From Candidatus Saccharimonadota bacterium (GTDB lineage Bacteria > Patescibacteriota > Gracilibacteria > UBA4473): a DNA stretch of 32,000 nt. Below are positions 1,880-31,834 of this stretch, piece by piece. Below the pieces are notes generated by a model, which saw nothing but the letters and a program-made list of their open reading frames with translations, ran no database searches and was not told the origin of the DNA. Positions within the stretch are counted from its first letter, which is position 1; every line of letters starts with the position of its first letter. The stretch covers positions 120,001-152,000 of the forward strand of contig JAUIFI010000001.1 of NCBI GenBank assembly GCA_030429505.1, written 5' to 3'. Position numbers and translations under genes: made by a program.

Positions 1880-2727
1880 AATACATAATTTGGATAACCG
1901 TCTTAATGATTTCTGTGATGAGCGGAAACCTCATCTATGCTCAGGTGCAGTTAGGAGATCTGGATAGTGCAGGAACCCCAGATGAAATAAAATTTAGTAC
2001 TGTGGAAAATGCACTTTTTCCAACTTGGCGAGGAGCCACAGCCTTGGAAAATATGCGAAAAAAAATAGAAGCAAATCTCAATGGACCAGATAGCCAAGAA
2101 TTGGAAGGATTAAAAAAGAGATTAGAAGCTGCTCAAAAAACACTAGAGCCGAAGCAGAAAGTTTTTGATAGTCTCAAAAAAGATGTAGATGAAAAAAATG
2201 AAAAACTTCAACAATATTATGAAGAAGTACGATTTACTAGAGTAGAGCTCGATGCTTGTCATGGTGGTAGCGGTCCTTGTGTAGATGAGACAGAAGATCA
2301 CAAGCAAGCATTAGCCAGAATGACAGACCAATTAAGAAAAGTAAATTTTGCCAAAGAAGATTTAGAAGATGCCAGGGTAGATATGCTTCCTGAACAAACA
2401 AATGTCGAGCGAATCAACCAAGAAATCGATGATTTCTTTCTTGAATGGCATGACTTTAATATACCAGTAGATGGAGTGATTGGGAGAAATGATGACGGAT
2501 TTTTTTTACTTCAATACATTCCGCGAATTATTGATATTTTAATTAAAATAATCGCGCCACTTTTTATGGGAATGATGATATATGCTGGAATTAGGTTCCT
2601 CTATGCTGGAGATGATGAAGAAGAGCTTTCCAAGGCCAAAGATTTTTTCCTTTACGCGTTTATTGGCATTATATTTGTCCTTTTTAGTTACTCTATACTT
2701 AAAGCAGTATATTTTCTTTTGGCATGA
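1876..2727 (+). CDS. secreted coiled-coil protein with C-terminal pilin-like hairpin anchor
   Basis: 283 aa. ATGA overlap with the upstream ORF (1876-1879). Signal-like N-terminus MKYIIWITVLMISVMSGNLIYAQ. Charged heptad-like middle (KKRLEAAQKTLEPKQKVFDSLKKDVDEKNEKLQQYYEE). C-terminal hairpin IIAPLFMGMMIYAGIRFLYAGDDEEELSKAKDFFLYAFIGIIFVLF. Confidence 0.7.
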   Translation: MKYIIWITVLMISVMSGNLIYAQVQLGDLDSAGTPDEIKFSTVENALFPTWRGATALENMRKKIEANLNGPDSQELEGLKKRLEAAQKTLEPKQKVFDSLKKDVDEKNEKLQQYYEEVRFTRVELDACHGGSGPCVDETEDHKQALARMTDQLRKVNFAKEDLEDARVDMLPEQTNVERINQEIDDFFLEWHDFNIPVDGVIGRNDDGFFLLQYIPRIIDILIKIIAPLFMGMMIYAGIRFLYAGDDEEELSKAKDFFLYAFIGIIFVLFSYSILKAVYFLLA

Positions 2728-3779
2728 AAAAGTTCTGTATAGGTTTTCTAAGTTTTATATTCCTCTTTGGAGGAATGGTTTTAGCAAAAGATGTGACACC
2801 TTACGATCTTGGAAAAGCTATGCGAGACGTACAACAAAAAAAATTCTATATCCAAGTTGAATTACCACAGCATCTACCAGGGATAGATGAGCAAAGTCTT
2901 CAAGGCAATGCCTCTGATGTAACTGTATTTCTTCAAAGATTTGCAAATGGTATTGCTGGTATTGCCGGATCCATTGCTGTTATATTTATCATTATAAATG
3001 CTTTTGGTATGGCTGGATCGGCGGGAAATACAGAAGCCATAGAAAAGGCCAAAAAAGGACTTATTTGGTCTATCGCAGGACTAGTTCTTATTATCATGGC
3101 TTATGTAATAGTAAAAACCGTGCTTTCTCTCTCTTACTCAGGACAAGAAATAGTAGCAACCAAATGTAATGATGGCATTGATAATGATGGTGACGGATTC
3201 ATTGATACAGACGATATGGATTGTTTTAGAGAGTTTGATGATAGAATGGCATATGATCCAACGATCAATAGTGAATCAGGAGCAAAGACCGAATGTATAG
3301 ACGGTATTGATAATGGTGGTGACGGATATATTGATAATAATGACTTCAACTGCTGGAGAGACTTTGATGACCGGAGCACCTACGATCCAACGATCCAAGT
3401 AGAAGATCCAGTGCCACCGAAGCCAGTATTGGAAAATTTCTTAACGGAAAGATGGTATCTTCCTGAAGGAGTTCGTATTCCAGAGAGCCTTGGATTCTTT
3501 GATCGTGAATCTATCAAGGTTTGGAGTACAGGAGCTATTCCCGATGAATCAATAGACTTAGAAGAATGGGAAAAAGTTGGAGTAGATATTGAAAACATTG
3601 ATCAATTTTCAGAAGATGATTTCCAATACCTTCGAGATACATTTGGCACTTGGAAAGATAAAGCTTTACGTGAATTGCAGGCTCTATCTGAGTTAGAAAG
3701 AAAACAATTAAGAACAGCTCCACTTCAAAAAAGAAGAGACATAATACAAGAATTTAGAAAACGGAGACCACTCTCTTGA
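2724..3779 (+). CDS. pilin-like hairpin protein with two Cys-bracketed DNDGDG (calcium-binding-like) modules
   Basis: 351 aa. ATGA overlap at 2724-2727. Signal-like N-terminus. Hairpin IAGIAGSIAVIFIIINAFGMAGSAGNTEAIEKAKKGLIWSIAGLVLIIMAYVIV. Then KCNDGIDNDGDGFIDTDDMDCFREFDDRMAYDPTI and ECIDGIDNGGDGYIDNNDFNCWRDFDDRSTYDPTI. Acidic/charged C-terminal region. Confidence 0.72.
   Translation: MKKFCIGFLSFIFLFGGMVLAKDVTPYDLGKAMRDVQQKKFYIQVELPQHLPGIDEQSLQGNASDVTVFLQRFANGIAGIAGSIAVIFIIINAFGMAGSAGNTEAIEKAKKGLIWSIAGLVLIIMAYVIVKTVLSLSYSGQEIVATKCNDGIDNDGDGFIDTDDMDCFREFDDRMAYDPTINSESGAKTECIDGIDNGGDGYIDNNDFNCWRDFDDRSTYDPTIQVEDPVPPKPVLENFLTERWYLPEGVRIPESLGFFDRESIKVWSTGAIPDESIDLEEWEKVGVDIENIDQFSEDDFQYLRDTFGTWKDKALRELQALSELERKQLRTAPLQKRRDIIQEFRKRRPLS
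3165..3401 (+). repeat. in-frame tandem duplication (2 x 43 codons) encoding the CxDGxDNxGDGxxDxxDxxC...FDDRxxYDPTI module
   Basis: The Cys codon of copy 1 is at 3165 and of copy 2 at 3294, giving a 129-nt period. The two peptide copies align residue for residue. Confidence 0.8.
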
Positions 3780-4841: not shown

Positions 4842-5348
4842 CTACCCGCCTCCCATTAATTTTCGCTTCAACTCTTCCGCTTCTTCAACACTTCCACTTT
4901 CTTCTTCAGTTTCTTCTTGCTTGATGACCGCGATATTTCGTTCTTTTTCTCGTTCTGCTTTCAGTTTTGCTACATCTTCTGAAAACTCTTGCTCTAGCTC
5001 TGAAAACTTTTTTCGTTCTTCACGAAAAATAGAAAAAAGCTCATTAATTTGATCAATACTCAACCGAGGAATAGCGTCAATAACCCTGTTTTTTTCCTCC
5101 ATTGTCAACGATATGGAGCCTTCTAACAAATCTAAAAAATCCGCTTCATCAAACTGTGTGTTGGGATGAGGGGGAATGACAAATAAATGTTTATCCCTCT
5201 TGGGAAGACGACCAGTATCTCCAGAAGATGAAGCTTTTCCTGCGATAGACGAATCCTGAGAACCTCTTAAATCATCAGAAGACGAAGCCCCATCATCTCC
5301 TCCCGAATGAGATGAAAACTGGTCTTTCTGGATATTATCGTCAGACAT
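4842..5348 (-). CDS. hypothetical protein: acidic, disordered N-terminus plus a conserved helical domain
   Basis: 168 aa with an ATG start, 13 nt downstream of the rplU stop and so probably co-transcribed. The C-terminal half, FLDLLEGSISLTMEEKNRVIDAIPRLSIDQINELFSIFREERKKFSEL, is paralogous to ORF 8932-9264. Confidence 0.65.
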   Translation of the reverse strand: MSDDNIQKDQFSSHSGGDDGASSSDDLRGSQDSSIAGKASSSGDTGRLPKRDKHLFVIPPHPNTQFDEADFLDLLEGSISLTMEEKNRVIDAIPRLSIDQINELFSIFREERKKFSELEQEFSEDVAKLKAEREKERNIAVIKQEETEEESGSVEEAEELKRKLMGGG

Positions 5349-5917: not shown

Positions 5918-7624
5918 CTACTTTGTCAATTCATCCGCAGGAACCGTATCCGTTTCTGCTGTGTTTTGTTCTGAAGAAAGTTGAGTAGAAGTATTTCCTT
6001 GCATGTGTTTTCTGGCCACCGCCAAGAAGTCAGCTCTTTTATTAATAAAGTATTCTCCATTTTCTTTTTCTTTTCCGGATAATTTATTAACACGTTGTCT
6101 TTCATGACCTTGGCTTATTTCTTCATCATGAAATAACTTTTCAAGTTTGGCATTTATATCAGCATCATCCTTCGGAAAATCATCACGACTTACGAGATAA
6201 GTTATGAGTTCTAAAGCCGGATCTTTAAGACTGTGTGCAAAAAACTTATCTACAATAAGTTTCATCGTATCTGTTCGTAAATTTTTATGTGTGACGAGTA
6301 GTTTTGACTGATCTCGATGAGCATAATGTTTTCCATAGAGATACATCTTACCGGCCATATAATGTAAGAAATTACCATCTGCGTGGGGAGAGTTAAGAAG
6401 TTCTCCAGGGAGAAAATTTCTTTGGTCATCTGCAACCCGTGTAAACATATAAGGATGTTTTAAGAAGTCTTTTTCTTTATCAGCTCCAGTTCCTTGGAAG
6501 AAAGATTTGGCTATTCCGAGAAGAAATTTAGGCGTCATGTTTTTATGATTGAGAGCATTTGCAGCATCCACACCAGAAATGCCCAAGTCATAATTCCAGA
6601 GATAAGTCAAAGCTTCAAATGGGGTGCTTTCATTCTCACATAAAGCCATTCTTATCCACGTACCATGTGCATGCTTTGCCGTGTCTAACAGAAAAGGAAC
6701 AGGCGTGCTTGTATTCCGGCAAACTGCTTGGAGTATTTTTCCCTTGGTCGTATTCATAAATACATTTTCATACTCGTGAAAATTTTTAAGGTTGGATTCG
6801 CTATTTTCATAGGGATCAATAACTTTTTTGCCTCCCTTGAGGTGGTTTTTAACAACATAATCAAAGAATATATCCCCAATTTTTTGAAGGTCCTTAGGCT
6901 TTGTGTTGGGATTATCTGCAATAGAAAGAAGAAGTTTTGCTTGTTCTTCATCCAGTATTGAAACATGTAAAGTATCCAAATTAATCTGTGCAAGCAAGAT
7001 GTCAATCTTCTCCACAGAGATATCACTTCGTGTAGCTAAGAGTGTATTTACAGCGGAAATGTTTCTCGAAAATAAAGCATCATATTGAGAAGAGGAAAGA
7101 TCTGACTTCTTAGCTAGCTGAGAGAGCATGCCAAACTCATTTGTATTGTTCTCTATAAAAGTATCTATGAATGAATTTTTTACATTATCAGGAATATGCT
7201 TATTTTTTAACAAGTGACCATGGAGAGAATCTCCAGGGTTCCATTCGTCATGGTTTCTCTTAGATGCCATGCTCTCCCAATCCCAAGACCCATCATCCTC
7301 ATTTGGAAGATTCGCAATGAGCATCCATAGCTCAGGAAGAGTGCATTTTTTGGCAAGTTCTTTCTTTCTATGAGTAGGGATTTCTCGAAGAATAGTATGG
7401 TTTTTGACGGCAATAGCTCCTAATGCTTGAATATCGAACGTATTAATATATTGATTGAGTTTTCCTAAATCTTTGTGAAATTTACCTGATGTTAATATCC
7501 GAGTTCCATCGTTTTTAAGAACATAAGCTTGATCAGCGAAAAGTTGTGAATTGGAAACAAGTTCATTCAGAACAGTTTCGCTTTGTGGGGGAAGATGTTC
7601 ATTGTAAAGGACTAAATACCTCAC
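5918..7624 (-). CDS. alpha-solenoid (HEAT/LRV-like) repeat protein; N-terminus uncertain, reading frame open up to 7768
   Basis: 568-aa ORF from a GTG. Repeat-like units: DEDVRYLVLYNEHLP, ADNPNTKPKDLQKI, CRNTSTPVPFLLDTA, CENESTPFEALTYL, HKNMTPKFLLGIA. No signal peptide or TM segment. See the finding on the in-frame TAA at 7769-7771. Confidence 0.7.
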   Translation of the reverse strand: MRYLVLYNEHLPPQSETVLNELVSNSQLFADQAYVLKNDGTRILTSGKFHKDLGKLNQYINTFDIQALGAIAVKNHTILREIPTHRKKELAKKCTLPELWMLIANLPNEDDGSWDWESMASKRNHDEWNPGDSLHGHLLKNKHIPDNVKNSFIDTFIENNTNEFGMLSQLAKKSDLSSSQYDALFSRNISAVNTLLATRSDISVEKIDILLAQINLDTLHVSILDEEQAKLLLSIADNPNTKPKDLQKIGDIFFDYVVKNHLKGGKKVIDPYENSESNLKNFHEYENVFMNTTKGKILQAVCRNTSTPVPFLLDTAKHAHGTWIRMALCENESTPFEALTYLWNYDLGISGVDAANALNHKNMTPKFLLGIAKSFFQGTGADKEKDFLKHPYMFTRVADDQRNFLPGELLNSPHADGNFLHYMAGKMYLYGKHYAHRDQSKLLVTHKNLRTDTMKLIVDKFFAHSLKDPALELITYLVSRDDFPKDDADINAKLEKLFHDEEISQGHERQRVNKLSGKEKENGEYFINKRADFLAVARKHMQGNTSTQLSSEQNTAETDTVPADELTK

Positions 7625-7768
7625 ATCTTCATCAGGGTCATGTATTAAGGTCAGTAAAACCTCAGGGTCTGTAGAAGTTTGTGCTAGATTTTTTCTTTCA
7701 AAAACTGATTTTTGAGCATAGATATATTCGTCCTCAGAGGATTTTTGTTCAGAAGATTCTCCTGAAAC

Positions 7769-8929
7769 TTATTGATCTGTATTTTCCGTGTCATTTTCTT
7801 GAGTATCAACTGAAGTATCCTCACTATCTGTTTCATTGTGTCCCATTTCACTAGTTGATTCATCAACTTGATTCTCTGGAGATGAATCATCTTCAAGTTC
7901 AGAAGACTCATTTATTGGAAGTTCTTCTTCCAGTGTCGTATTCGAATCTGACTCTTCACCGTTATTAGCTACAGACTCGTCTTCTATTACTTGTTGATCA
8001 TTTTTCAGCGGTTCTCCTGAAATAGGAGTAATTGATTCAGAACGAGCTTGTTCGGGAGTATCAGCATCTACAGTTTTAGCTGGAGCAGAAGGATCATCTG
8101 TTTTGCTCGGAGCATCCACGTAAATAATCGTAAAATAATACCCCTCACGACCACTTCCATCCGGAGCTTTTCCTTTTGTAAAAGCAACTCCAACATGAGT
8201 CAGAGATTGTATCATAGCAGTAGTATGACCAGTATGACTTGTGAGAATTTGAAAAGCTTCATCAACAGTTTGCCCCCAAGAAGTACTTTCTATAGCATTA
8301 GTCCCGTCCAGAGCAGCCATAGCTTGAGTCCTTCTCTCAGAACGATCTTTTGTGTGCCATTTTCCTTCTGCAGCGAGAGAGTCACTTTGTTGCTGCGCTA
8401 AATCAGAAAGATCTTGATTGAGTTCTAATGGTCCTTGAGCCATTCCTGAACGATAATCATTTATGTTTTTGAGAAAAGCCTCTCGAGAAGGAACTTCTAA
8501 CTGTTCCTGACTTTCGTGCACATTATCTGATTCAGATGCAAAGGATTGGATTTTTATTTGATCTTCAACCTTAAGTTCTTCCGGAGCAATAGCATCGAGG
8601 GGAGTATCTGTATCAGAATTTAAAAGAGATTTAACATCTTCGGGTAACTCCTCTCGACCTAAAATGCCATTTAAGACGGAGTTAATGTTTTGAGCAAAAG
8701 GGGTATTGCATGTTTGTACGTTTCGTTCTGCACACTGCCTTGCAAGTGGACATGTGCTTTCTGATGAGGTTATAGTCATACGAAAGACTTGTTCTGCTTG
8801 CTGACTACAATTTGGAGTTTCAACTTCCGGAACAACATCAGGAACATCAGAAGCCGTTTCTGCGTTTTGAAACAAAACACAGCCACCTTGTGAGAAGAAA
8901 AGCCCGGACACATGCCAAAGATTCTTCAT
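7769..8929 (-). CDS. secreted CAP/SCP-like domain protein with long acidic C-terminal tail
   Basis: 386 aa with a weakly hydrophobic N-terminus. Bacterial CAP-like core: NDYRSGMAQGPLELNQDLSDLAQQQSDSLAAEGKWHT...SWGQTVDEAFQILTSHTGHTTAMIQSLTHVGVAF...YYFTIIYV. The tail is D/E/S/T-rich. Confidence 0.65.
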   Translation of the reverse strand: MKNLWHVSGLFFSQGGCVLFQNAETASDVPDVVPEVETPNCSQQAEQVFRMTITSSESTCPLARQCAERNVQTCNTPFAQNINSVLNGILGREELPEDVKSLLNSDTDTPLDAIAPEELKVEDQIKIQSFASESDNVHESQEQLEVPSREAFLKNINDYRSGMAQGPLELNQDLSDLAQQQSDSLAAEGKWHTKDRSERRTQAMAALDGTNAIESTSWGQTVDEAFQILTSHTGHTTAMIQSLTHVGVAFTKGKAPDGSGREGYYFTIIYVDAPSKTDDPSAPAKTVDADTPEQARSESITPISGEPLKNDQQVIEDESVANNGEESDSNTTLEEELPINESSELEDDSSPENQVDESTSEMGHNETDSEDTSVDTQENDTENTDQ

Positions 8930-8931
8930 AT

Positions 8932-9264
8932 TTATAGTAAGGCATTAATTGAGCTTTCTAGTTCCTGAAGCGTCGCTTCATCTTCTTTTTTGCTTTGAAC
9001 TTCTTGCTCTTCTGTCTGACCTTTGATTTGCGTTTGAAGAAAGTGAGTAAACTCACTCAAGAAATCAGGATGCTTTTCGATATAAGCGGTCAAAAGTTGA
9101 TGTTGTTTGTGATACGCCTTTTGCAAAAGACGTCCTATTATTTCCAGTTTTTCGTCAGAAAAAGTATCTATTCCATCCACAATTTTTTCCCGAACTTCAT
9201 CAGTAATGATAAAAAGTCCTCTGAGAATCTCTAAAATATCTTGTTTTGTTTTATCTTGCCCCAT
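8932..9264 (-). CDS. small helical hypothetical protein (paralog of the C-terminal half of ORF 4842-5348)
   Basis: 110 aa with an ATG start. Its stop lies 2 nt before the next start. ILEILRGLFIITDEVREKIVDGIDTFSDEKLEIIGRLLQKAYHKQHQL aligns with the domain in the 168-aa protein. Confidence 0.65.
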   Translation of the reverse strand: MGQDKTKQDILEILRGLFIITDEVREKIVDGIDTFSDEKLEIIGRLLQKAYHKQHQLLTAYIEKHPDFLSEFTHFLQTQIKGQTEEQEVQSKKEDEATLQELESSINALL

Positions 9265-9270
9265 CCTCTC

Positions 9271-9279
9271 ATTATACCA
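9271..9279 (-). promoter_or_regulatory. extended -10 promoter element (TGgTATAAT), predicted leaderless transcript for ORF 8932-9264
   Basis: The minus strand reads GTGGTATAATGAGAGG-ATG. A perfect TATAAT (9276-9271) is preceded by TGn. Only 6 nt separate the hexamer from the ATG at 9264. Confidence 0.45.
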
Positions 9280-9340
9280 CGAAAAATCAATCTATACAAG
9301 GGTTCCAAGTGATTATATTCGTCATAAAAAAGGCATGATT

Positions 9341-11296
9341 TTAATAAGGCTTTTGTTTGACCCCATTAATGGTTATATTCCCATGAGGATCATAATTACA
9401 GACCCAAACAATACCTTTTGCATTTCCACCTATCCTCTCATCATAATACTCGCCACACGTTTGTTTTCCGCAACCAACTTTTTTTGTATCTTTCCAAACC
9501 ACTTGAGTGTAATGTCCGACTGTATTCAATGGACCTCTTTCTCCTGGGGAAAGAGGTCTCCTTAAAATCCTTTCGTTAGCAGATTTACACGAGTTATTCC
9601 AGACATATCTATTGGAGGCATAGTCATAGCATTCTTTTTCAGATACCCATCCATCAGTAGCTCCATGAGCATCCACAATACTTGAAAATGACATTGATGG
9701 ACTGCCAATTCCCCAAGCCAAATTTTCTCCCCAATTTTTTTCTTTTCTTCCCAAGGTACTCCGATGATGATCACTATTATTAGCTCGATCAAATATCTCA
9801 CAGTTTTTGTTATCCTTAAGAAAATCAGCCCACTCTTGAGCATAAGTCGCAATATTCGCATCCCAAACTAAGCTCCCAACGCCTACATCTCTTCGAGCAT
9901 CATTATGAAACCTAACTATATCTTGAATTTCTTCATTTGATAATTTAGATCCTGAAGAGGGTGGGGAAGTGTCGTCATGTTCATCACCACATTCTGTCTT
10001 GGTACATTTCCCTTCGCCATCGCATTCGATCTCAATCTCTTCTCCGCCGCTACTTTCAGAACCATTATCACTATCATCTCCACCAAAAGGGTCTGGACCG
10101 GCAATACCATCTAAAGATTTATCGGGATCGGGGATGTCGTTATCGGAGTCGTCTCCTCCAAATGGATCAGGACCGGCAATGCCCCCATTTTCAAGGGGAT
10201 CTTCTCCTTCTTCAGTCGCACAGCTGCCATTCTTTTTACAGACTTCTTTAACACATTTTGTACCATCACATACGGTTTTTTCAGTTCGAGCACCTTCTTC
10301 AGGGTCTGGATCTGGAATTTCTTTTGGAAGTGCACATGATTGAGGTTCAGGTTCGGGGGGAGACATATCTTCTCCTTCACTATCAATAGTTTTGTCATAA
10401 TTTCCGCTATCATCTAGACAATCAGAGTCACCAGCATCGACTTCACCATCATTGTTATTATCTTTACCATCTTGGCATTGAGTCGTAGCCAAAGATTCGT
10501 ATACAGAATCATCAAGCTCAGGTTCACCATCATCTAGTACAGAAGCGTAGAGAGGAAACATAAACCGAAACGCAGTTTTTTCACTTCCACCACCTTTACA
10601 TCCTGGATCATCCATATCGATCAAACCATCCCCATCATTATCCATTCCATCGCTACATTCATGAGGCGTACCAAAGAAACCCGGGTTAATACTCTCCAAA
10701 AGTAAACCAATCAAAAAAAGTAAAATAATACTGGCAATGGCCTTAAAAATGTCATCTTTTGCCTCAGTCACAGATTCCGAACGAGCCCCCCCAGTCATGA
10801 TTTGAATCCCTCGAATAACAATAATCAGAACAGCAATAATTCCAATGATTGAAGCTGCATATCGATAAAAAACAGATACCAGGTTTCCGATCAACTCCAT
10901 TCCCGTTCTTCCCCGAATGGTTTTGTATTTCCCCCACGCTTCTTTGAGTTCGACACAATATCCTACATCTGTAAAACCGGCGGAAGCAGGGTCGATACAC
11001 TTGGTCGTACTTGCCCACAAGTCAAAATCAGCCGGTGGATGATCTCCATCAAACGTATAAAAATCATCAAAAGCTTTATCAAGATAAGCTACATATTCAT
11101 CATAAACTCTCTTTCTATCTCTTCCTTCAGCCGTACTGGTATCATGTGGTGGCTTAAATTCTTCCCATACAGTTTGATCTGTTTTACTAATTATAAACAT
11201 AGCCTTTGGCGGAGGTGGTGGGCGTTGAGCATCTCCCTCCGGTAATAACCAGAGAAAAGCCACTAAGAAGGAAAGAAGTATGAAAAATTTCTTCAT
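9341..11296 (-). CDS. multidomain surface protein: signal peptide, pilin-like hairpin, DNDGDG modules, acidic repeats, C-terminal CAP/SCP/PR-1 domain
   Basis: 651 aa from the ATG at 11296 (the track start at 11311 is a TTG). Signal peptide MKKFFILLSFLVAFLWLLPEGDAQ, followed by RPPPPPK. Hairpin IIGIIAVLIIVIRGIQIMTGGARSESVTEAKDDIFKAIASIILLFLIGLLL. Modules ECSDGMDNDGDGLIDMDDPGC and QCQDGKDNNNDGEVDAGDSDC. Two copies of GIAGPDPFGGDDSDN. CAP motifs FHNDARRDVGVGSLVWD, GHYTQVVWKDTKKVGCG, VWVCNYDPHGN. Confidence 0.82.
   Translation of the reverse strand: MKKFFILLSFLVAFLWLLPEGDAQRPPPPPKAMFIISKTDQTVWEEFKPPHDTSTAEGRDRKRVYDEYVAYLDKAFDDFYTFDGDHPPADFDLWASTTKCIDPASAGFTDVGYCVELKEAWGKYKTIRGRTGMELIGNLVSVFYRYAASIIGIIAVLIIVIRGIQIMTGGARSESVTEAKDDIFKAIASIILLFLIGLLLESINPGFFGTPHECSDGMDNDGDGLIDMDDPGCKGGGSEKTAFRFMFPLYASVLDDGEPELDDSVYESLATTQCQDGKDNNNDGEVDAGDSDCLDDSGNYDKTIDSEGEDMSPPEPEPQSCALPKEIPDPDPEEGARTEKTVCDGTKCVKEVCKKNGSCATEEGEDPLENGGIAGPDPFGGDDSDNDIPDPDKSLDGIAGPDPFGGDDSDNGSESSGGEEIEIECDGEGKCTKTECGDEHDDTSPPSSGSKLSNEEIQDIVRFHNDARRDVGVGSLVWDANIATYAQEWADFLKDNKNCEIFDRANNSDHHRSTLGRKEKNWGENLAWGIGSPSMSFSSIVDAHGATDGWVSEKECYDYASNRYVWNNSCKSANERILRRPLSPGERGPLNTVGHYTQVVWKDTKKVGCGKQTCGEYYDERIGGNAKGIVWVCNYDPHGNITINGVKQKPY
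10064..10183 (-). repeat. in-frame direct repeat (75-nt period) encoding GIAGPDPFGGDDSDN twice
   Basis: Copy at 10139-10183 and copy at 10064-10108, both on the minus strand inside ORF 9341-11296. Confidence 0.8.
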
Positions 11297-11300
11297 TGTT

Positions 11301-12335
11301 TTACGAAGCAATAAAGATTAAAGATAATACAAACTGGACAATAATAAGTCCCAGATAGGCAATTAAAATACCAAAGATCGTATAAATCACGATGTTCTTT
11401 CCCTTTGTCAGCTGACTGTCATCACCTCTCGACGTAATCATTATAACTGCCCCAATAATCAAAAGTAGCACTCCCAATGTTCCAAATATCTGAGTAAAAA
11501 GGCGAATCACCCGACCGAAAATACTTACCTGGTCCTTCCCGTCATCTAAAAGAGTTAACTTATGCTCGTTTCCTACACTCAACTTTACATTAACATCAAA
11601 GTTTGAGGTGGTCTGTCCCAAAAGCTTGAGACTGGCATCTTGCATCTCAACAAGGCTTTCATGAAGGCATTTTCCAAACGTCGAATCAACATAGTCCTTG
11701 TTGTTCGACAACAAGGCTGTGTAGGCTACAATGAGTTTGAGCTTTGCTTGATGTTCAAGCATTTCATCAGAAGCAGAGTTTGCTTGTCCCCATAAATCTG
11801 TTCCAGAGGATGTATCATCTCCAATAAGCCCTTCTAAATTAGTACGAACTGTTGGAGCGTGAATGGGACGGACGACGAGAGGATCTATTTCATTCGTCAC
11901 AAAATCCTCTCGCTTGCTAAGACCTTTCGTACGAGCAGCTGGATCTCCATAAGAGATCGTATGAGGGACGTCCGGATAAGCCCAGATATCAAGTCTGGTA
12001 AGCGTATCAGGATCTTTGTTTTTCCGTTTAGTATTTATAAAAGCGTCAACCTCTCTGGTAACTCGACCAAGGGCATCTTGTATTTCAGGAATCTCCCAGT
12101 TTTTTTTCTCTTTGCTAAACCTTAAAAGGGCCGCATCATACATGAGCTTTTTTTTACATTGTTCTTTAGAAAGGTCTTTCTTTAGGTTTTGGCATTGAGT
12201 CCATTCAGCATTATTTATATCCAAATCAACTCCTCCAGCCGCACAGGGTCTAGAAGTTGTTTGAGCAAAAACTGCCTCAGTAAAAAACATTACTGAAAAC
12301 AAAAAGAAAAAAACTAATGTAAAACGCTTCTGCAT
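11301..12335 (-). CDS. secreted protein with C-terminal pilin-like hairpin anchor
   Basis: 344 aa. Signal peptide MQKRFTLVFFFLFSVMFFTEAVFAQ. Ectodomain of unknown fold. C-terminal hairpin IFGTLGVLLLIIGAVIMITSRGDDSQLTKGKNIVIYTIFGILIAYLGLIIVQFVL. Its stop is 4 nt before the next gene's ATG. Confidence 0.75.
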   Translation of the reverse strand: MQKRFTLVFFFLFSVMFFTEAVFAQTTSRPCAAGGVDLDINNAEWTQCQNLKKDLSKEQCKKKLMYDAALLRFSKEKKNWEIPEIQDALGRVTREVDAFINTKRKNKDPDTLTRLDIWAYPDVPHTISYGDPAARTKGLSKREDFVTNEIDPLVVRPIHAPTVRTNLEGLIGDDTSSGTDLWGQANSASDEMLEHQAKLKLIVAYTALLSNNKDYVDSTFGKCLHESLVEMQDASLKLLGQTTSNFDVNVKLSVGNEHKLTLLDDGKDQVSIFGRVIRLFTQIFGTLGVLLLIIGAVIMITSRGDDSQLTKGKNIVIYTIFGILIAYLGLIIVQFVLSLIFIAS

Positions 12336-15509: not shown

Positions 15510-17957
15510 ATGAATTTATTCAAAAACATATATAAAAAATTAGGTGTGCCAGAGATAGAGCAAGGAGCTGTTTCTACATCATGGCTTGCTCGCTTCTTTT
15601 TCCAAATAGGGTTTGTAGTAGCTTGGACAATTATAACAGCCCTTTTTGTAGAACAATTTGGTATTGCAAACCTTCCTTGGCTTTTTTTGATTGAGGCAAT
15701 TCTTTACATATTAGGAAGTGTCGGTGCGAGTTTTTTTCTCGAAAAAATATCAATGAGATTTTTCCTCTTGATTACAAACCTTTCGACACTAGTACTTTTG
15801 CTTTCCGCCTTACTTTTAAATTTATCCCCAGTGGTATTTTTTGGTTTGATCCTTAGTGCTAAAAGCTTAGTTTTTTCGCAAGTTAATATTGCTTTATACC
15901 GGAGAACCGAAACATTATTCTCAACATCCCAGGCACAGAAAACCATGCCTATTATTGAATCAGCTATTACTATAGGAGCAGTTGTGGGAGCAGCACTAAC
16001 TCTGGTTATGTTAGATATTCTTCCAGGAAATGAAACCCAATTCGTTCTGACTATTTGGGGAATATCTTTGATTGGAATAGCCCTAGTAACATGGTTTTCA
16101 CCAAAGCTCCTTCATTTCATCCCGCATCCTCAAAAAAAGGCACAAGAAAAAATAGAAAAATCAGTCAAAAATCCCCTTGATGAAGCTTTTTTAGCACTTA
16201 AAAACACTCGGTTTATCAAACATATTTCTCTGCTTCTTGTTCTTCAAATGGCTGTTTTTACCATTATTGAAATAGAATTTACAAAAGAAGTGCAAAGTCA
16301 TATTACGCATACTCCCTATGATGCAGTCTCTGTATCAGGACATGACCTTCAGGCTAGTATTTTAGATGTAGCCAAAGAAAAAGCTTCCGATATTTCTCAT
16401 CATATTAAAGAGACAGGAGAAGCTGTTTCATCAAAACTCATTATGCATGAGAGTTTAGCTCATGATTTGGGAATGTTTCACCTGATTTTTGCCATCTTAG
16501 CATTATTTTTTCAACTCCTTCTTACTCCTTATATTCTCGCTAAGCTTGGTATTGTTCGTTCTATTATTTCCTACTTTGGTGTTTTATCTTTATCAGTATG
16601 TGGAGTCATTCTCGGGTACATTCCTGTGAGCTTACTACGAATTATTCAGCATAGTACTCATTCGGTTGGGGAATCTGCTTATCACATCAGTTACTATTCT
16701 ATTTTTGAACATAACAGAGAAGCCGTTCGACTTTTTCTGGAAGGTATTATGAAACCAATAGGAATCGGTTTATCTGTATTTATCATATTTTCAATTCCAC
16801 ATCACTGGCTGTTTTATACTATCCTAAGTATCCTTATTCTTATGCTTGTAATTGGTATCAGAATGAGGTTGAGTTTTACAAAGTTATCACAACAAAACTT
16901 ACGAGCTCATCAAAATATTGAAGCCAAAGTCAGTTCCGTAGAAGTGTTAGGACAAAGTGGTCATAAGGATCCAGCTTCTATTCTCACCACAGAGTTAAAA
17001 AGAAAAGAAGAACATCCCGTAATTCGAGAGAAAATTATACACACTTTGTCTGACATTAACGATCCGAAGATCGTTCATCAATACCTTCATATTCTTCGGG
17101 ATCCTCAAGAAGATCTAGACCTAAAAAACAAAATTTTGGAATCACTTTTCAGTCTTCATATCCCAGAAAGTTATTGGAAAAAACACGCCTTTACTCGATA
17201 CCATTTACTTAATACACTGAAACACAGTTTTGATATTCATGATCATCCTTACACGAGAAAAAGAATTATCATGAACATCTTCAAGCACCTTCCTCACCAC
17301 GAAATAGCTCCTTTCTTTTTAGAAAATATCCAGAAAGTCGATGACAAGCTTAAATCAATTTACCTGCGTTCATGTAAAATGTTCGAAGATCCGGAAATTG
17401 TTTTTTATGTCCGTGATTACATAAAACACACAAATCCCATGATTCAAAGTCATGCTATAATTGCACTTTGGAAATTTGAAGATCAGGAAAACCTTCGAAA
17501 TATTCTTTATTCCTTGGCAGAAAAATCTGACGAAGAGTCCAAAAAATCAGCTTTTTATGCCTTAGGAGAAATTAAGGACGAAAAAAGTAAAGAACTTCTC
17601 TTCGCGCATAAGGATCATAAATCAAAAGAGGTTCGTCTACATACGGCTATTGCGCTCGCCAAGCTTGGTGATGAGAGAGCATTTCCACTACTAATAAACC
17701 TCCTTTTTGGAAAAGATATGAATATCTCTAAATCATGTTTTCGTATGCTTCATAGAGTCTCCGAAGACATTCGTTCGCAAATACAAAGAGAAATTCAATT
17801 TCAAGTCTCGCAAACCGTATCAAAAATTCTTACTCAACACATAGAAGACATGAATCAAAACCAAAGCATACCCCAAAAAACAAGAGAAATTCTGTATCAT
17901 TTGTATTGGTTAGCCGGACGATACGATGATTTACTCGCTTTGGAAAAGATAAAATAA
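15510..17957 (+). CDS. polytopic permease (MFS/Npt-like fold) fused to a C-terminal HEAT (PBS-lyase type) repeat domain
   Basis: 815 aa. About 450 N-terminal residues contain many hydrophobic helices. The C-terminal half carries HEAT-like units: VIREKIIHTLSDINDPKIV, MIQSHAIIALWKFEDQENL, SKKSAFYALGEIKDEKSKELL, EVRLHTAIALAKLGDERAFPLLINLL. Confidence 0.7.
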   Translation: MNLFKNIYKKLGVPEIEQGAVSTSWLARFFFQIGFVVAWTIITALFVEQFGIANLPWLFLIEAILYILGSVGASFFLEKISMRFFLLITNLSTLVLLLSALLLNLSPVVFFGLILSAKSLVFSQVNIALYRRTETLFSTSQAQKTMPIIESAITIGAVVGAALTLVMLDILPGNETQFVLTIWGISLIGIALVTWFSPKLLHFIPHPQKKAQEKIEKSVKNPLDEAFLALKNTRFIKHISLLLVLQMAVFTIIEIEFTKEVQSHITHTPYDAVSVSGHDLQASILDVAKEKASDISHHIKETGEAVSSKLIMHESLAHDLGMFHLIFAILALFFQLLLTPYILAKLGIVRSIISYFGVLSLSVCGVILGYIPVSLLRIIQHSTHSVGESAYHISYYSIFEHNREAVRLFLEGIMKPIGIGLSVFIIFSIPHHWLFYTILSILILMLVIGIRMRLSFTKLSQQNLRAHQNIEAKVSSVEVLGQSGHKDPASILTTELKRKEEHPVIREKIIHTLSDINDPKIVHQYLHILRDPQEDLDLKNKILESLFSLHIPESYWKKHAFTRYHLLNTLKHSFDIHDHPYTRKRIIMNIFKHLPHHEIAPFFLENIQKVDDKLKSIYLRSCKMFEDPEIVFYVRDYIKHTNPMIQSHAIIALWKFEDQENLRNILYSLAEKSDEESKKSAFYALGEIKDEKSKELLFAHKDHKSKEVRLHTAIALAKLGDERAFPLLINLLFGKDMNISKSCFRMLHRVSEDIRSQIQREIQFQVSQTVSKILTQHIEDMNQNQSIPQKTREILYHLYWLAGRYDDLLALEKIK

Positions 17958-26332: not shown

Positions 26333-26488
26333 ATGCTAGCAAAAGTAAAATCATCTCAAAAAGATTCTCAATCAAAAGTTTCATCTGCTCAATCATCGGG
26401 GGAGAAGATTCAGGAAGAAACCAAAACTTTGTGGGGGAAAAACCGGTTTGAAACCAGCTTGCAATTTGTCATGAGTCATCATGAATAG
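26333..26488 (+). CDS. possible small hydrophilic protein (51 aa), low confidence
   Basis: TACAAT (26320-26325) lies 7 nt before the ATG at 26333. The ORF MLAKVKSSQKDSQSKVSSAQSSGEKIQEETKTLWGKNRFETSLQFVMSHHE fills the 175-nt dgt/lemA divergent gap and overlaps the lemA start by 8 nt. No recognisable family. Confidence 0.25.
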   Translation: MLAKVKSSQKDSQSKVSSAQSSGEKIQEETKTLWGKNRFETSLQFVMSHHE

Positions 26489-27146
26489 AATCTCTTCCGG
26501 TCCACGTCCTAGCGGCATTGAACCAAGTATATGGGAGCAATTTTTCGAAAAATTCTTAAGCCAATTTCCGATTTCATGGCAAGAAACTCTGTATTCTTGG
26601 GGAAATGTTATAAAGAATTTTTGGGATTCGTATGCTACCTGGATATTACTAATCATTGTAATATTGGCACTTCTCAAGGTCATGATATCAGTCGTTCGTC
26701 GACAAGAAAAAAGCATCCAAAAACTTTGGAATCTTTTACTCTTTTTCTTATCAAAAAGACAAATGATGATTCCTCTGATTTATACTGTTGCCAAACGAGA
26801 GAAGATGTTAAAAGATGAAGAGCTCCAAAAACTACTGGAGATAAAACAAAAATGTCATAGTATGCCTTTTAAAAAGGATCCTCAAAAGAGACTTGAAGTC
26901 GAAAAAGAAGCTTCTCGCGTCCTTTTCTCCTATTTCTCTCAAGTAGAACAAAAAAAACAAAAAAATCCTATTATGCAACAAGTCATTAAAGATTTTGAAT
27001 TTATGGACCAAAAACTCGTTGAACTTCAAAAAGTCTATAATCAAGCTGCTCAGAGCTGGAACAAAAAAAGAAATATATTTCCCATTAGTCTTCTAGCAGG
27101 AATCTTTCGCTTTAAAAGATTTCAACCTTTCGGTGACCGCTCATGA
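26481..27146 (+). CDS. LemA family membrane protein
   Basis: 221 aa with one TM segment (WILLIIVILALLKVMISVV). LemA-like segments: KRQMMIPLIYTVAKREKMLKDEE and the C-terminal VYNQAAQSWNKKRNIFPISLLAGIFRFKRFQPF. ATGA overlap with lgt. Confidence 0.68.
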   Translation: MNRISSGPRPSGIEPSIWEQFFEKFLSQFPISWQETLYSWGNVIKNFWDSYATWILLIIVILALLKVMISVVRRQEKSIQKLWNLLLFFLSKRQMMIPLIYTVAKREKMLKDEELQKLLEIKQKCHSMPFKKDPQKRLEVEKEASRVLFSYFSQVEQKKQKNPIMQQVIKDFEFMDQKLVELQKVYNQAAQSWNKKRNIFPISLLAGIFRFKRFQPFGDRS

Positions 27147-29362: not shown

Positions 29363-29710
29363 TTATCCCGCAATATCACTCCCCACCGCTCGCTCTACAA
29401 TCTTTGATATCCGTTTTAAACCAAAATCTTTATCCTGACTCTCAGGAGAGGGGACAGGGACGACGGCTGGTAAAGGTTTTTTTGATAATTTTATCAAAAG
29501 ATCATCTGGCAATCCTTTATAATAAGTTTCTTCAACAAATATAATTGCATATTCAGCTGTTTTCTGTTCAACATTCTGTTGTCGAGATGATAAATCCTCT
29601 AAAACATTTCTCGCTTGAGAAGGTTCAGCAACAGAATGAGCTTCCACTCCCAATGCCTGATAAATCAGGATTGAAGTAGAATTGCCAATAACTGCGAGTT
29701 TACAATGCAT
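29363..29710 (-). CDS. ntpG: V/A-type ATPase subunit F
   Basis: 115 aa. KLAVIGNSTSILIYQALGVEAH, YAIIFVEE, KKPLPAVVPVPS, ERAVGSDI match the subunit F pattern. It follows subunit C after a 9-nt gap. Confidence 0.85.
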   Translation of the reverse strand: MHCKLAVIGNSTSILIYQALGVEAHSVAEPSQARNVLEDLSSRQQNVEQKTAEYAIIFVEETYYKGLPDDLLIKLSKKPLPAVVPVPSPESQDKDFGLKRISKIVERAVGSDIAG

Positions 29711-29719
29711 GAGAAGAAG

Positions 29720-30730
29720 TTAAAAAGCTCTGATCTTTTCATAAATAGTTTCTGTAGGAATCCCATGAAACTTTGAAAACATAATAAATTTAAGCATCTT
29801 TGCATTCTGAATACGACGGTGCATATATGACAAAGGTACTTGAATAGAGTTAATTTCTCCGGATTGTCCTTCATGGAGAAACTGATCATAGATTTTATCG
29901 AGTTGTCTCTCAATCGTGAGAACCAACTCTTCAGAACTATCCTGATCGGAGATATTAGCAAAAACTGAAGAAAACAGTCTAACTTTGAGTAATTGGTCTT
30001 TGCTCGAAACTTCAGCACATTCAGTCCAGGTTAAAGTACCAAGTGGAATAAAGCACTCTTTCTTCAAAGGTTCTTCCCGCATCAAAACAGATCTTGTCAA
30101 AGATTTGAAATTCGTAATATCGACTAAAAGTAAAAAAAGATCTTTCAAGAAACGATTTCCGGATTTTTGTACAATCGTATATAAAATTTCAAAATAAAGT
30201 TGGTCGAGAAAAAACTCTATCTTTGAAAAGTTTTGATCGTCCTGCCACTGAGACTCTATGTATTGTAATTGTTCTCCAAAATTATCACCCAAGTAGTTCA
30301 AAAATTCCTCAGGGATTACACTATTCCAGACGATGTTTTCAACATCAGATTGGTCTAAATTTCCCAGCAAAGAAAAACCATGAGTTTGGGAAAAATGTTC
30401 CAAAGATGATTTCTTATCAAGTAACTTTAGTTTAAAGGCTCGCTTCAAATTATTAATATCCGCTGGTAGCCATAAAAATTGTAATCCCGGATTATTTTCC
30501 GTCTCTCTCATGAGTAATTCCTTCGTTTCCAAAAGTCCTTGTTCAATTATACGATCAAAATCTTCAGCTTTCGCTTCTTCATCGATATAATCCGCATATT
30601 GTAGCTCTATAAGGATCCGAAAAGCTTCATGAGGAGTTTTTGCTCCGATCATTCGATCAAGACGATTAATTGTCAATAAACGAGTTTCCAAGGCTCGTAT
30701 CTGACCGGTAACAAAAAGAAGATCAGTCAT
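29720..30730 (-). CDS. ntpC: V/A-type ATPase subunit C (eukaryotic d homolog)
   Basis: 336 aa. The N-terminal VTGQIRALETRLLTINRLDRMIGAKTPHEAFRIL is typical of this subunit. ATGA overlap with subunit E. Confidence 0.85.
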   Translation of the reverse strand: MTDLLFVTGQIRALETRLLTINRLDRMIGAKTPHEAFRILIELQYADYIDEEAKAEDFDRIIEQGLLETKELLMRETENNPGLQFLWLPADINNLKRAFKLKLLDKKSSLEHFSQTHGFSLLGNLDQSDVENIVWNSVIPEEFLNYLGDNFGEQLQYIESQWQDDQNFSKIEFFLDQLYFEILYTIVQKSGNRFLKDLFLLLVDITNFKSLTRSVLMREEPLKKECFIPLGTLTWTECAEVSSKDQLLKVRLFSSVFANISDQDSSEELVLTIERQLDKIYDQFLHEGQSGEINSIQVPLSYMHRRIQNAKMLKFIMFSKFHGIPTETIYEKIRAF

Positions 30731-31287
30731 GAGACAAATTTCAGTTCTTCAGACAAATGTAACATCAATGGTTCTCGAAATTCAGAGAAAACCAATGATC
30801 GAAACGAATTATCAATTTCCGTACCACCAGAATGGACGAGAAACCCTCCGCTAATATTCTTATGTGCCACTACATCAAATCCGCCAGGAGCACATTTTGA
30901 TGTGATTTCTAATCTTTTTGGAGGTGCTAGAATTTTTCCAGAAGAAACAGACAATTGCTCAAAAAGCTTATCCAGAATTTGTTTATATGTTTTCTCATCT
31001 GCTTGTTCAAGCTTGTGTAAAAAAGCTTCAAAAAAACTTTCTAATACCTTATGTTTCGCTTCAAGAAGTGATTGGCTGTTCTGTCTTCGAGCCATAGAAC
31101 GAGTTTTCTCTTCCACAGATTTTAAAGCATCTTTGGTTTTTTTCTCGATTTGGGCAGACTCTTGCTTTTCTCTTTGAACAAATTCTTCTCGAATCTTTTC
31201 CAGATCAGATACGACATCGCTTTCTATCTGCGCTACATTTTCAGCAGCATCATCAAGAATTTTTCTTAAAATATCTTGCAGAGACAT
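30727..31287 (-). CDS. ntpE: V/A-type ATPase subunit E
   Basis: 186 aa. Long charged N-terminal helix (LQDILRKILDDAAENVAQIESD...) plus a globular C-terminal part (GGFLVHSGGTEIDNSF). Confidence 0.82.
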   Translation of the reverse strand: MSLQDILRKILDDAAENVAQIESDVVSDLEKIREEFVQREKQESAQIEKKTKDALKSVEEKTRSMARRQNSQSLLEAKHKVLESFFEAFLHKLEQADEKTYKQILDKLFEQLSVSSGKILAPPKRLEITSKCAPGGFDVVAHKNISGGFLVHSGGTEIDNSFRSLVFSEFREPLMLHLSEELKFVS

Positions 31288-31327
31288 TACGAATGAATAA
31301 TTAAAAACTAAGAATTAATACAGTATA

Positions 31328-31834
31328 TTAGACACCAATGTTGACTGAGTTCACAATCAAAAGAGAAATAAGCAAACCAAAGATAGCATAAGTCTCAATG
31401 ATAACTGAAAGTACAATAGCTTTCCCTGCCATAGACTCGTTACGGGCAATGGTGCCAATACTAGAAGCTGCTACTTTTCCTTGCATCCAGCCGGACGTAA
31501 GCCCAGCAATACCCATCAAAATTCCAGCCAAAAGAAGTTGCATTCCAGCTTCAACGGATACAGACGCACCACCTTCAAACATTTTAATTTTGGCCAGAGT
31601 CAAAATAGCAATCAAAAGACCATAGACTCCTTGTGAACCAGGAAGAGCGGTAATTACGAGGACTTTACCAAAGAGATTTGGTTTTTCCGCTAAAACGCCA
31701 GCTCCCTTTGAGCCTGGACCAGAAATACCAAGTGAAGAACCAAGACCAGCCAAAGCCGCCGCGGTGATACCACCAAGGATAGCTAGAACTGAGCCTGAGA
31801 GATGAAGAGCCGTTGTCGGATCTGATTCAATCAT
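31328..31834 (-). CDS. ntpK: V/A-type ATPase proteolipid subunit K (duplicated, four-helix c subunit)
   Basis: 168 aa with four hydrophobic helices. Closely resembles Enterococcus hirae NtpK as I recall it: LPGSQGVYGL (LPGTQGLYGF), SGWMQGKVAAS (SGIAQGKVAAA), IETYAIFGL (VETYAILGF). Confidence 0.9.
   Translation of the reverse strand: MIESDPTTALHLSGSVLAILGGITAAALAGLGSSLGISGPGSKGAGVLAEKPNLFGKVLVITALPGSQGVYGLLIAILTLAKIKMFEGGASVSVEAGMQLLLAGILMGIAGLTSGWMQGKVAASSIGTIARNESMAGKAIVLSVIIETYAIFGLLISLLIVNSVNIGV

Follow-up and report, generated by a model that had tools for sequence, protein, structure and literature searches.

On the minus strand of the 32-kb window (the whole stretch of DNA analysed here), two adjacent open reading frames at 7769-8929 and 5918-7624 lie in a common frame with one TAA (7771-7769) between them, raising the question of whether this locus holds two genes or a single interrupted one. 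This arrangement had been reported in a reading made from the sequence alone, and was confirmed by translating 8929-5918 as one unit; all but one of that reading's factual statements stood up to checking. The resulting 1004 codons contain stops only at codon 387, which is the TAA, and at the end, and the 616 codons 3′ of the TAA are completely open. The pattern exceeds what chance would produce. Across the six frames of the window, this is the sole in-frame stop with at least 150 open codons on each side. As argued below, the two called genes are almost certainly one secreted-type (predicted) CAP-linker-LRV protein of ~1000 residues, cut by a single TAA in its linker. Coordinates are collected in Table 1.

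Table 1 Features of the interrupted frame, with positions counted from the first letter of the window.
Feature	Position	Strand	Basis
Upstream called ORF (386 aa, ending in TAA), with a hydrophobic N-terminal segment, a region containing Cys, the CAP domain and an acidic tail	7769..8929	-	Translation; singleton P0002
CAP (cysteine-rich secretory protein) domain, residues 154-270	8120..8470	-	Pfam PF00188
Ser/Glu/Asp/Thr/Asn/Gln-rich low-complexity linker, residues 271-386	7772..8119	-	Composition windows
Single in-frame TAA interrupting the frame	7769..7771	-	Translation
Codons 1-14 after the stop, VSGESSEQKSSEDE, acidic linker continued	7727..7768	-	Composition and codon score
Codons 15-48, YIYAQKSVFERKNLAQTSTDPEVLLTLIHDPDED, encoding the N-terminal cap plus the first half of LRV repeat 1	7625..7726	-	Pfam LRV, phmmer, 1LRV
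ATC, interval codon 16, a candidate site for reinitiation and the sole near-cognate start close to the boundary of the LRV domain	7721..7723	-	
GTG used as start by ORF callers; reads as Val of the conserved LRV 'D.D..VR' motif	7622..7624	-	
Downstream called ORF (568 aa, ending in TAG), a degenerate repeat protein of LRV/alpha-helical type	5918..7624	-	Singleton P0001
Further region of recognisable LRV-like repeat, at residues 343-391 in the extended (616-aa) protein	6596..6742	-	HMMER repeat-level matches

Between the TAA and the GTG at which the downstream ORF is called lie 48 sense codons (7768-7625, minus strand) with no ATG, GTG or TTG; retranslation matched the earlier translation exactly. 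The near-cognate codons present are ATC (7723-7721), the CTG at 7654-7652 that had already been pointed out, and ATA (7645-7643). Among the 29 genes compared, this is the longest open extension 5′ of a called start, followed by extensions of 26, 25 and 22 codons.

This 48-codon interval is coding sequence. It has a codon-frame score of 8.4, at the gene median (8.6 ± 3.9 for in-frame windows of real genes); no out-of-frame window (0/656) and 0.3% of intergenic windows score as high, and both halves score gene-like. An overlapping 75-aa ORF at 7684-7911 was considered as another reading across the junction and rejected, because codon scores for the interval in its two alternative forward frames are -32 and -58. 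It had also been proposed that the acidic composition of the upstream tail continues across the stop. Over the first 14 residues this is borne out, with S, E, D, Q, T or N at 11 positions, compared with 74% in the upstream tail (residues 300-386); residues 15-48 are instead an LRV cap and half-repeat. No intergenic 14-codon window reached 11 such residues (0/2452, of which ~1170 are stop-free). The first 25 interval codons, comprising the 14 linker-like codons and 11 more, have a gene-like codon score of 4.4, where genes average 3.8.

The LRV repeat domain, for its part, runs straight through the GTG. When the N-terminal 123 aa of the extended protein were scanned alone, Pfam LRV matched residues 25-46 at 21.6 bits, which is exactly the cutoff; the full 616-aa extended protein scores 17.6 bits, under the 21.6 cutoff. 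An exhaustive HMMER search of 1.84 billion representatives gave 33 proteins at E ≤ 1e-3, namely the window's own product and 32 others, all of which are LRV proteins and carry PF01816 and PF25591. The consensus of these 32 homologs is TP.E.L..LA.D.D..VR..VA.N. Local phmmer alignments to LRV proteins begin at residues 4-32 and extend beyond residue 55, and 42 of the 55 domains span the GTG codon (residue 49), bearing out the sequence-only reading that the repeat domain starts 5′ of any canonical start. Together with the codon statistics, this homology supports the earlier view of the interval as coding. PDB entry 1LRV, the sole PDB sequence match, aligns to residues 20-60. The N-terminus of P0020, a stand-alone LRV protein of 265 aa, reads MKLYIHAAQDVDKRGLAKTSDDPDVL and aligns from Y15 of the interval; P0020 begins three residues ahead of the Y15 equivalent and carries the N-cap motif YI[YH]A at its extreme N-terminus (MKLYIHAAQ...).

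Further along the protein, for 10 of the 33 matches the highest-scoring stretch lies within residues 336-407, centred on the second repeat region. A paralog check found no significant similarity between the repeat ORF and the 815-aa HEAT protein encoded at 15510-17957, and an AlphaFold2 single-sequence model of the 616-aa extended protein had a mean pLDDT of 46, too low for use. The GTG supplies the Val of the conserved 'D-x-D-x-x-V-R' motif, with the second half of LRV repeat 1 lying past it. Because the repeat runs through the GTG, the 'start' there is an artefact of ORF calling: GTG 7624 is not the native start, only the first canonical start codon that an ORF caller meets.

On the other side of the stop, the upstream ORF matches PF00188 at 41.9 bits (cutoff 21.1), covering profile positions 2-117 of 117. 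The neighbouring gene at 9341-11311 encodes a T4SS-pilin-CAP fusion in which the CAP domain is joined to the other module via an acidic region, so a modular style of this kind exists in the genome. The particular combination of CAP with LRV is without precedent among the 32 LRV relatives, a small set in which no CAP domain was found, and this counts against an originally fused gene.

Both halves are orphans in the collections searched, with no ortholog of either found among about 15 billion proteins, the metagenome contigs or the syntenic loci of relatives. A word-index protein search returned only the window's own proteins, the exhaustive HMMER search gave LRV repeat-level matches but no ortholog, and a metagenome contig scan gave no match to either half. 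Exact-product look-ups led to no further contig, and the clusters P0001 and P0002 are both singletons. For synteny, 30 related Gracilibacteria/Peribacteria loci were retrieved via L21. Related loci preserve the gene order p344 - pilin gene - L21 - p168 but have, between the pilin gene and L21, either no gene or two opposite-strand genes, and tblastn of the fused protein against the syntenic loci gave no match. It also weighs against a once-fused gene that no fused ortholog, nor any ortholog, was found in these collections to display the uninterrupted state.

These observations bear on the view that the two were always separate genes, with the LRV gene starting at ATC 7723 and with the shared frame and 15 open codons being coincidental. 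The beginning of stand-alone P0020 three residues before the Y15 equivalent would suit such a history, as would the lack of a CAP domain in any of the LRV relatives found. We nevertheless regard it as very improbable, as it calls for several independent coincidences: the same frame (1 in 3), a stop-free gap (about 0.48) and, in that frame, a linker-like S/E/D/Q composition that occurs in none of the ~1170 stop-free intergenic windows. It also needs a type of start codon found in about one bacterial gene in 1000, and the first 25 interval codons score as coding.

The probable explanation, in our view, is that a nonsense substitution has interrupted a single CAP-linker-LRV gene, with translation now ending at the TAA. 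The locus has what such a gene would leave behind: one frame with a single stop, a coding-like gap, and a domain cut by the annotated start. Until recently, 8929-5918 (minus strand) would have been one CDS of about 1003 codons, encoding in order a hydrophobic (signal-like) segment, the CAP domain, an acidic linker of ~130 residues and an alpha-helical repeat domain of the LRV type. Substitution of one base would then have turned a linker codon into TAA; the change keeps the frame, which points to a substitution and not to an indel-type assembly error. The original codon was most simply GAA, CAA, AAA or TCA, all one base change from TAA and together accounting for 36 of the 130 linker codons. 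Translation would stop at the TAA to give a CAP protein of 386 residues, acidic tail included, and the LRV part may be untranslated or made at a low level through reinitiation. The first explanation offered in the sequence-only reading was an ancestral CAP-linker-solenoid protein of ~1000 aa that a nonsense change or an error had split, and it is the one favoured by the frame, codon and repeat evidence.

The 616 open downstream codons imply either that the mutation is very recent or that the downstream part is still under selection. The linker comprises 13% of the codons, and we rejected the idea that it is a mutational hotspot, since pre-stop codons are not enriched there (0.41 nonsense paths per codon, versus 0.38-0.42 elsewhere). 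A stop positioned in the linker is also to be expected of a tolerated fission or a regulated event, and this counts against a simple nonsense interruption.

One such possibility is a maintained fission, with a genuine nonsense change and with the LRV part made separately by reinitiation or non-canonical initiation. The downstream frame, intact across 616 codons, and the inter-domain position of the stop are both consistent with this. The most plausible start site would be ATC 7723-7721, which keeps almost the whole LRV N-cap and lies at a plausible protein N-terminus, one residue into the motif found at the N-terminus of P0020. The sequence 5′ of the ATC is itself coding in character, as the 15 codons upstream belong to the coding-scoring first 25. 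Starts at CTG 7654, ATA 7645 or GTG 7624 would give a protein without the first half-repeat, as all three codons lie inside the repeat, and initiation at the CTG, suggested earlier, is disfavoured for this reason. ATC, CTG and ATA starts are, furthermore, very rare among bacteria. A GAGG sits 8 nt 5′ of the ATC and 5 nt 5′ of the CTG. Shine-Dalgarno cores of this kind precede 1 of 28 genes here, under the 9% background, so the genome does not rely on such sites; for that reason we dropped Shine-Dalgarno support for either start, and a poor site is likewise no obstacle to fission. A scan of 7400-9400 found promoter- and terminator-like signals in and around the interval at chance level only. 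On balance, we consider a maintained fission unlikely.

We judge it similarly unlikely that the TAA reflects a wrong base in the consensus, or a minor allele that the assembly has fixed, in which case the cell would make the full CAP-linker-LRV protein of ~1000 residues. This would explain the intact 616-codon downstream frame without extra assumption, and the genome is known from a single record of one strain, with no second strain to compare. However, consensus substitution errors are rare, and the sequence at the stop (CAA TAA GTT TCA GGA GAA TCT TCT GAA CAA) places it outside any homopolymer. The other window genes tested are full length, matching Pfam models essentially end to end, which indicates that the assembly is not error-ridden. 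The 386-aa and 568-aa products are listed exactly under two sources, NCBI and Logan, which were counted as one contig; if the Logan entry is an independent read assembly it reproduces the stop, a weak argument given that one contig was counted.

Lastly, the TAA might be a site of recoding, at which some ribosomes read through, or hop from CAA to CAA nine codons on, to yield a short CAP and a long CAP-LRV protein from one message. The continuous frame, the stop in the linker and the intact downstream frame would all fit, and matching CAA codons around a 24-nt gap that holds an AGGAG resemble the parts of T4 gene 60 bypassing. As CAA is common in the linker (7/130 codons), however, such a flanking match is expected by chance. 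A TAA followed by G, as here, is among the most efficient bacterial terminators, and most of the leaky stops known are UGA or UAG; in the window, TAA terminates 21 of 30 genes. No RNA structure is predicted around the TAA (z = -0.28, with 74 of 200 shuffles folding equally well), and the window contains neither a second case nor a tRNA gene. Because TAA is a normal stop here, with no predicted structure and no second case in the window, programmed readthrough as raised in the sequence-only reading is disfavoured, and we hold recoding of either form to be highly improbable. An alternative genetic code was also rejected, although some relatives are labelled Gracilibacteria: TGA and TAA end genes at expected positions, which for TGA include 4-nt overlaps between genes (ATGA). 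In short, this is an ordinary kind of gene interruption, with no sign of a new decoding mechanism.

For annotation, the GTG-started 568-aa protein should not count as a native gene product, and a better description of the locus is a single CAP-linker-LRV gene with an internal stop. It records an orphan, lineage-specific and putatively surface-type protein in a small-genome, Patescibacteria-type bacterium, within a variable slot adjoining type IV secretion-pilin-like genes. If the stop proved conserved or read through, the locus would be an example of recoding at UAA, although nothing here points that way; such a case would be a rare instance of bacterial programmed recoding at UAA, in a bacterium of the Gracilibacteria/Peribacteria group.

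Compared with known LRV proteins (PF01816/PF25591; 1LRV from Azotobacter vinelandii), the region around the GTG shares the unit T-P-x-E-x-L-x-x-L-x-x-D-x-D-x-x-V-R-x-x-V-x-x-N. In contrast to those proteins, only residues 15-68 and ~343-391 are recognisably LRV, the remainder being too diverged for any family, and no ortholog of the repeat protein of this locus was found in the collections searched. With the CAP/SCP superfamily (PF00188) the locus shares a complete CAP domain, which adjoins acidic low-complexity sequence as in the neighbour at 9341-11311; what differs is that the CAP domain here is N-terminal to the linker and the LRV domain would come next. Programmed stop-codon readthrough and translational bypassing are exemplified by the Q-beta A1 protein and T4 gene 60. 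As in those systems, an in-frame stop lies between coding segments, and identical CAA codons flank a 24-nt gap, but the TAA here is in a strong context and lacks a predicted stimulatory structure. The closest likeness is to genes carrying a single nonsense codon, such as young pseudogenes and split genes. These likewise appear as two adjacent same-strand ORFs in one frame with one stop; coding signal and a domain continue across the apparent gap, and the 'start' is the first canonical codon. Where this locus differs from them is in the position of its stop in an inter-domain linker, so that both pieces could in principle still fold.

The minus-strand stretch 8929-5918 comprises 3012 nt, or 1004 codons, and translating it gives just two stops, the TAA of codon 387 (7771-7769) and the terminal TAG (5920-5918). 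The interval between the first of these stops and the GTG called as the start of the LRV gene spans 48 codons (7768-7625), translates as VSGESSEQKSSEDEYIYAQKSVFERKNLAQTSTDPEVLLTLIHDPDED, and contains no ATG, GTG or TTG. A sequence-only reading had described two ORFs in one frame, with a single TAA between them and no canonical start in the interval, and our translation shows each of these facts to be correct. In a six-frame scan of the whole window, this TAA (391 open codons upstream, 616 downstream) was the only in-frame stop flanked on each side by 150 or more open codons. Among 29 genes, the LRV gene has the longest open extension 5' of its called start (48 codons vs 26, 25 and 22 for the next longest).

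Coordinates of the two ORFs (from the ORF list) and of near-cognate codons in the interval
Feature	Position	Strand	Description
Upstream ORF (CAP gene)	7769-8929	-	386 aa, ATG start
Downstream ORF (LRV gene)	5918-7624	-	568 aa, GTG start; same frame as upstream ORF
Near-cognate ATC	7723-7721	-	interval codon 16
Near-cognate CTG	7654-7652	-	interval codon 39
Near-cognate ATA	7645-7643	-	interval codon 42

The interval is coding sequence, as had been suspected from its appearance; gene-like codon scores, linker-like composition and LRV homology all uphold this. With the other 27 genes of the window as training set, a codon-frame log-likelihood score came to 8.4 for the interval, compared to 8.6 +/- 3.9 for real in-frame 144-nt gene windows (48th percentile). 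This value was reached by 0 of 656 out-of-frame windows and by 0.3% of 924 intergenic windows, and the remaining five frames of the interval scored from -15 to -58. Scored separately, codons 1-25 and 26-48 gave 4.4 and 3.8 (gene mean 3.8), values matched by about 1% of intergenic windows.

The upstream ORF holds a complete CAP domain (residues 154-270; PF00188, 41.9 bits), and the next 115 residues or so form an acidic linker. The 14 codons directly 3' of the TAA, before the LRV domain, encode VSGESSEQKSSEDE, of which 11 residues are S/E/D/Q/T/N, a class making up 74% of the last 87 residues of the upstream ORF. A count of 11/14 is reached in 0 of 2452 intergenic 14-codon windows, all frames considered, and in only 0.13% of all such windows in the 32 kb. 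As the composition is linker-like on both sides of the TAA, the linker runs through the stop, and the Ser/Glu/Asp-rich tail does continue past it as first described. In the neighbouring gene 9341-11311, a T4SS-pilin-like segment is connected with a C-terminal CAP domain via a Cys- and acid-rich region, so a modular build with acidic linkers is characteristic of proteins at this locus. T4SS_pilin (PF18895) segments occur in five genes (1466-1879, 1876-2727 and 2724-3779 on the plus strand; 9341-11311 and 11301-12335 on the minus strand), and 2724-3779 also carries an acidic double-disulfide repeat.

When the N-terminal 123 aa of the 616-aa extended protein were scanned, interval residues 25-46 matched Pfam LRV (PF01816) at 21.6 bits, exactly the gathering score; the full 616 aa gave 17.6 bits. 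Searched exhaustively with HMMER, 1.84 billion representatives yielded no ortholog; apart from the window's own product, 32 proteins showed repeat-level similarity (E 9e-11 to 6e-4), and all of them carry PF01816 and PF25591. The best-scoring stretch in 21 of the 32 starts at residues 4-31 and ends at residues 63-97, i.e. across the GTG (residue 49), and after local realignment 42 of 55 domains run from residue 40 or earlier to residue 55 or later. The window repeat TDPEVLLTLIHDPDEDVRYLVLYNEHLPP aligns with the consensus of the 32 proteins (N..TP.E.L..LA.D.D..VR..VA), so that the GTG encodes the Val of the conserved 'VR'. Judged from these alignments, a GTG-initiated protein would start mid-repeat, and the claim that the repeat domain begins 5' of any canonical start is borne out. 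The only PDB sequence match was 1LRV (query residues 20-60 vs chain residues 61-99, E = 0.043). P0020, a stand-alone LRV protein of 265 aa, has the N-terminus MKLYIHAAQDVDKRGLAKTSDDPDVLAKLAEDEDEYVRW, and its residue 4 aligns to interval residue 15 (YIYAQKSVFERKNLAQTSTDPEVLLTLIHDPDEDVRY). The LRV protein P0013 has a similar start, and in a third, P0006, this unit is internal and follows an acidic stretch (SEASESDFDSIEKIRAIKSTRQRAKLLERSTDPD). On this evidence, the LRV domain starts at about codon 15 (7726).

Non-canonical initiation 3' of the stop was also considered. The CTG put forward by the sequence-only reading lies inside an LRV repeat, as do the ATA and GTG, which disfavours that proposal; ATC is the sole candidate that would yield a near-complete domain. 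The 15 codons 5' of ATC lie in a stretch that scores as coding and are linker-like in composition, so ATC would come into play only for reinitiation once fission had occurred. For the LRV and CAP genes to have always been separate, a chain of coincidences and a very rare type of start codon would be needed.

The window is about 37% G+C, densely coding and uses the standard bacterial code. Stops in 30 genes are TAA (21), TGA (6) and TAG (3), with several TGA placed in ATGA or TTGA gene overlaps, which rules out TAA/TGA reassignment. Just 1 of 28 genes has a GGAG/GAGG/AGGA core between -18 and -5, vs a 9% background; translation in this organism works without Shine-Dalgarno sites, and such motifs near candidate starts are therefore uninformative. 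The Pfam matches of all other genes tested cover essentially the full model, and by this measure no further assembly disruption was found in the window.

Recoding at the TAA is very improbable. TAA-G is a strong terminator context and TAA is the standard stop in this genome, which argues against programmed readthrough, as do the 131 nt around the stop, whose folding is no stronger than that of shuffled sequences (z = -0.28), and the lack of a second case in the six-frame scan of the window. As for bypassing, CAA codons do flank a 24-nt gap; CAA occurs often in the linker, however, and a take-off structure was not predicted. Frame, codon, linker and LRV evidence together best support the first explanation originally offered, in which a lone stop codon within the linker interrupts one gene. 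The simplest account is a coding sequence of about 1003 codons (CAP, linker, LRV) that had one linker codon changed to TAA; GAA, CAA, AAA and TCA, each a single substitution from TAA, make up 36 of the 130 linker codons. Since the frame is preserved, the change would be a substitution and not an indel artefact, and with 616 codons still open downstream, either the event must be very recent or selection must have persisted. The linker, with 13% of the codons, is not enriched in pre-stop codons. A stop at this position leaves the CAP domain intact, which is mildly suggestive of survivorship and is not evidence of design.

The CAP and LRV products are both singleton clusters among about 15 billion proteins, and no relative was found on metagenome contigs. 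Related genomes conserve the order p344, pilin gene, L21, p168. The slot from the pilin-like gene to L21 (5863-9340) here holds the 110-aa protein p110 (8932-9264, -), the CAP gene and the LRV gene, an arrangement seen only in the window among the related loci compared. It is empty in L010, L013 and L024, and is occupied by two opposite-strand genes (about 303 aa and 420-480 aa) in L002, L006, L007, L012, L015 and L018; tblastn with the fused protein gave no match in the related loci. The CAP-LRV locus is lineage-specific. The acidic 168-aa p168 (4842-5348, -), just downstream of L21, keeps its position in 21 related genomes (loci L001-L023; 52-75% identity) and has no Pfam hit that clears the curated cutoff; a motif in common with p110 is visible by eye (…EEKNRVIDAIPRLSIDQINEL… vs …DEVREKIVDGIDTFSDEKLEII…). 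L21 (5362-5862, -) is not followed by L27 here, and has a Lys/Ala/Pro-rich C-terminal extension of about 50 residues (…KKAEPKASEKKAPANTSSKKAIVKKPATKKPASVKKTSKKS), parts of which are matched in some relatives.

L21 retrieves MAGs labelled Gracilibacteria, Peribacteria or Altimarinota (65-78% identity). The five T4SS-pilin-like genes and V-type ATPase genes, on a contig of 1,023,206 bp, fit a small-genome Patescibacteria-type bacterium. The V/A-type ATPase run (29363-31834, -) encodes subunits F, C/AC39, E and proteolipid c, an 815-residue-class gene set notable for a genome of about 1 Mb. Elsewhere, an 815-aa protein (15510-17957, +) with C-terminal HEAT_2/PBS-lyase HEAT repeats (PF13646, 1.4e-20) shows no significant similarity to the LRV protein. 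A 107-aa ORF (26393-26716, -) overlaps the start of a LemA-family gene (26481-27146, +) by about 235 nt, matches no family and is probably not a real gene.

In short, the result corrects the annotation and has little general interest: the interruption of a gene by one stop codon is a familiar type of event, and here the gene encodes an orphan CAP-LRV protein.
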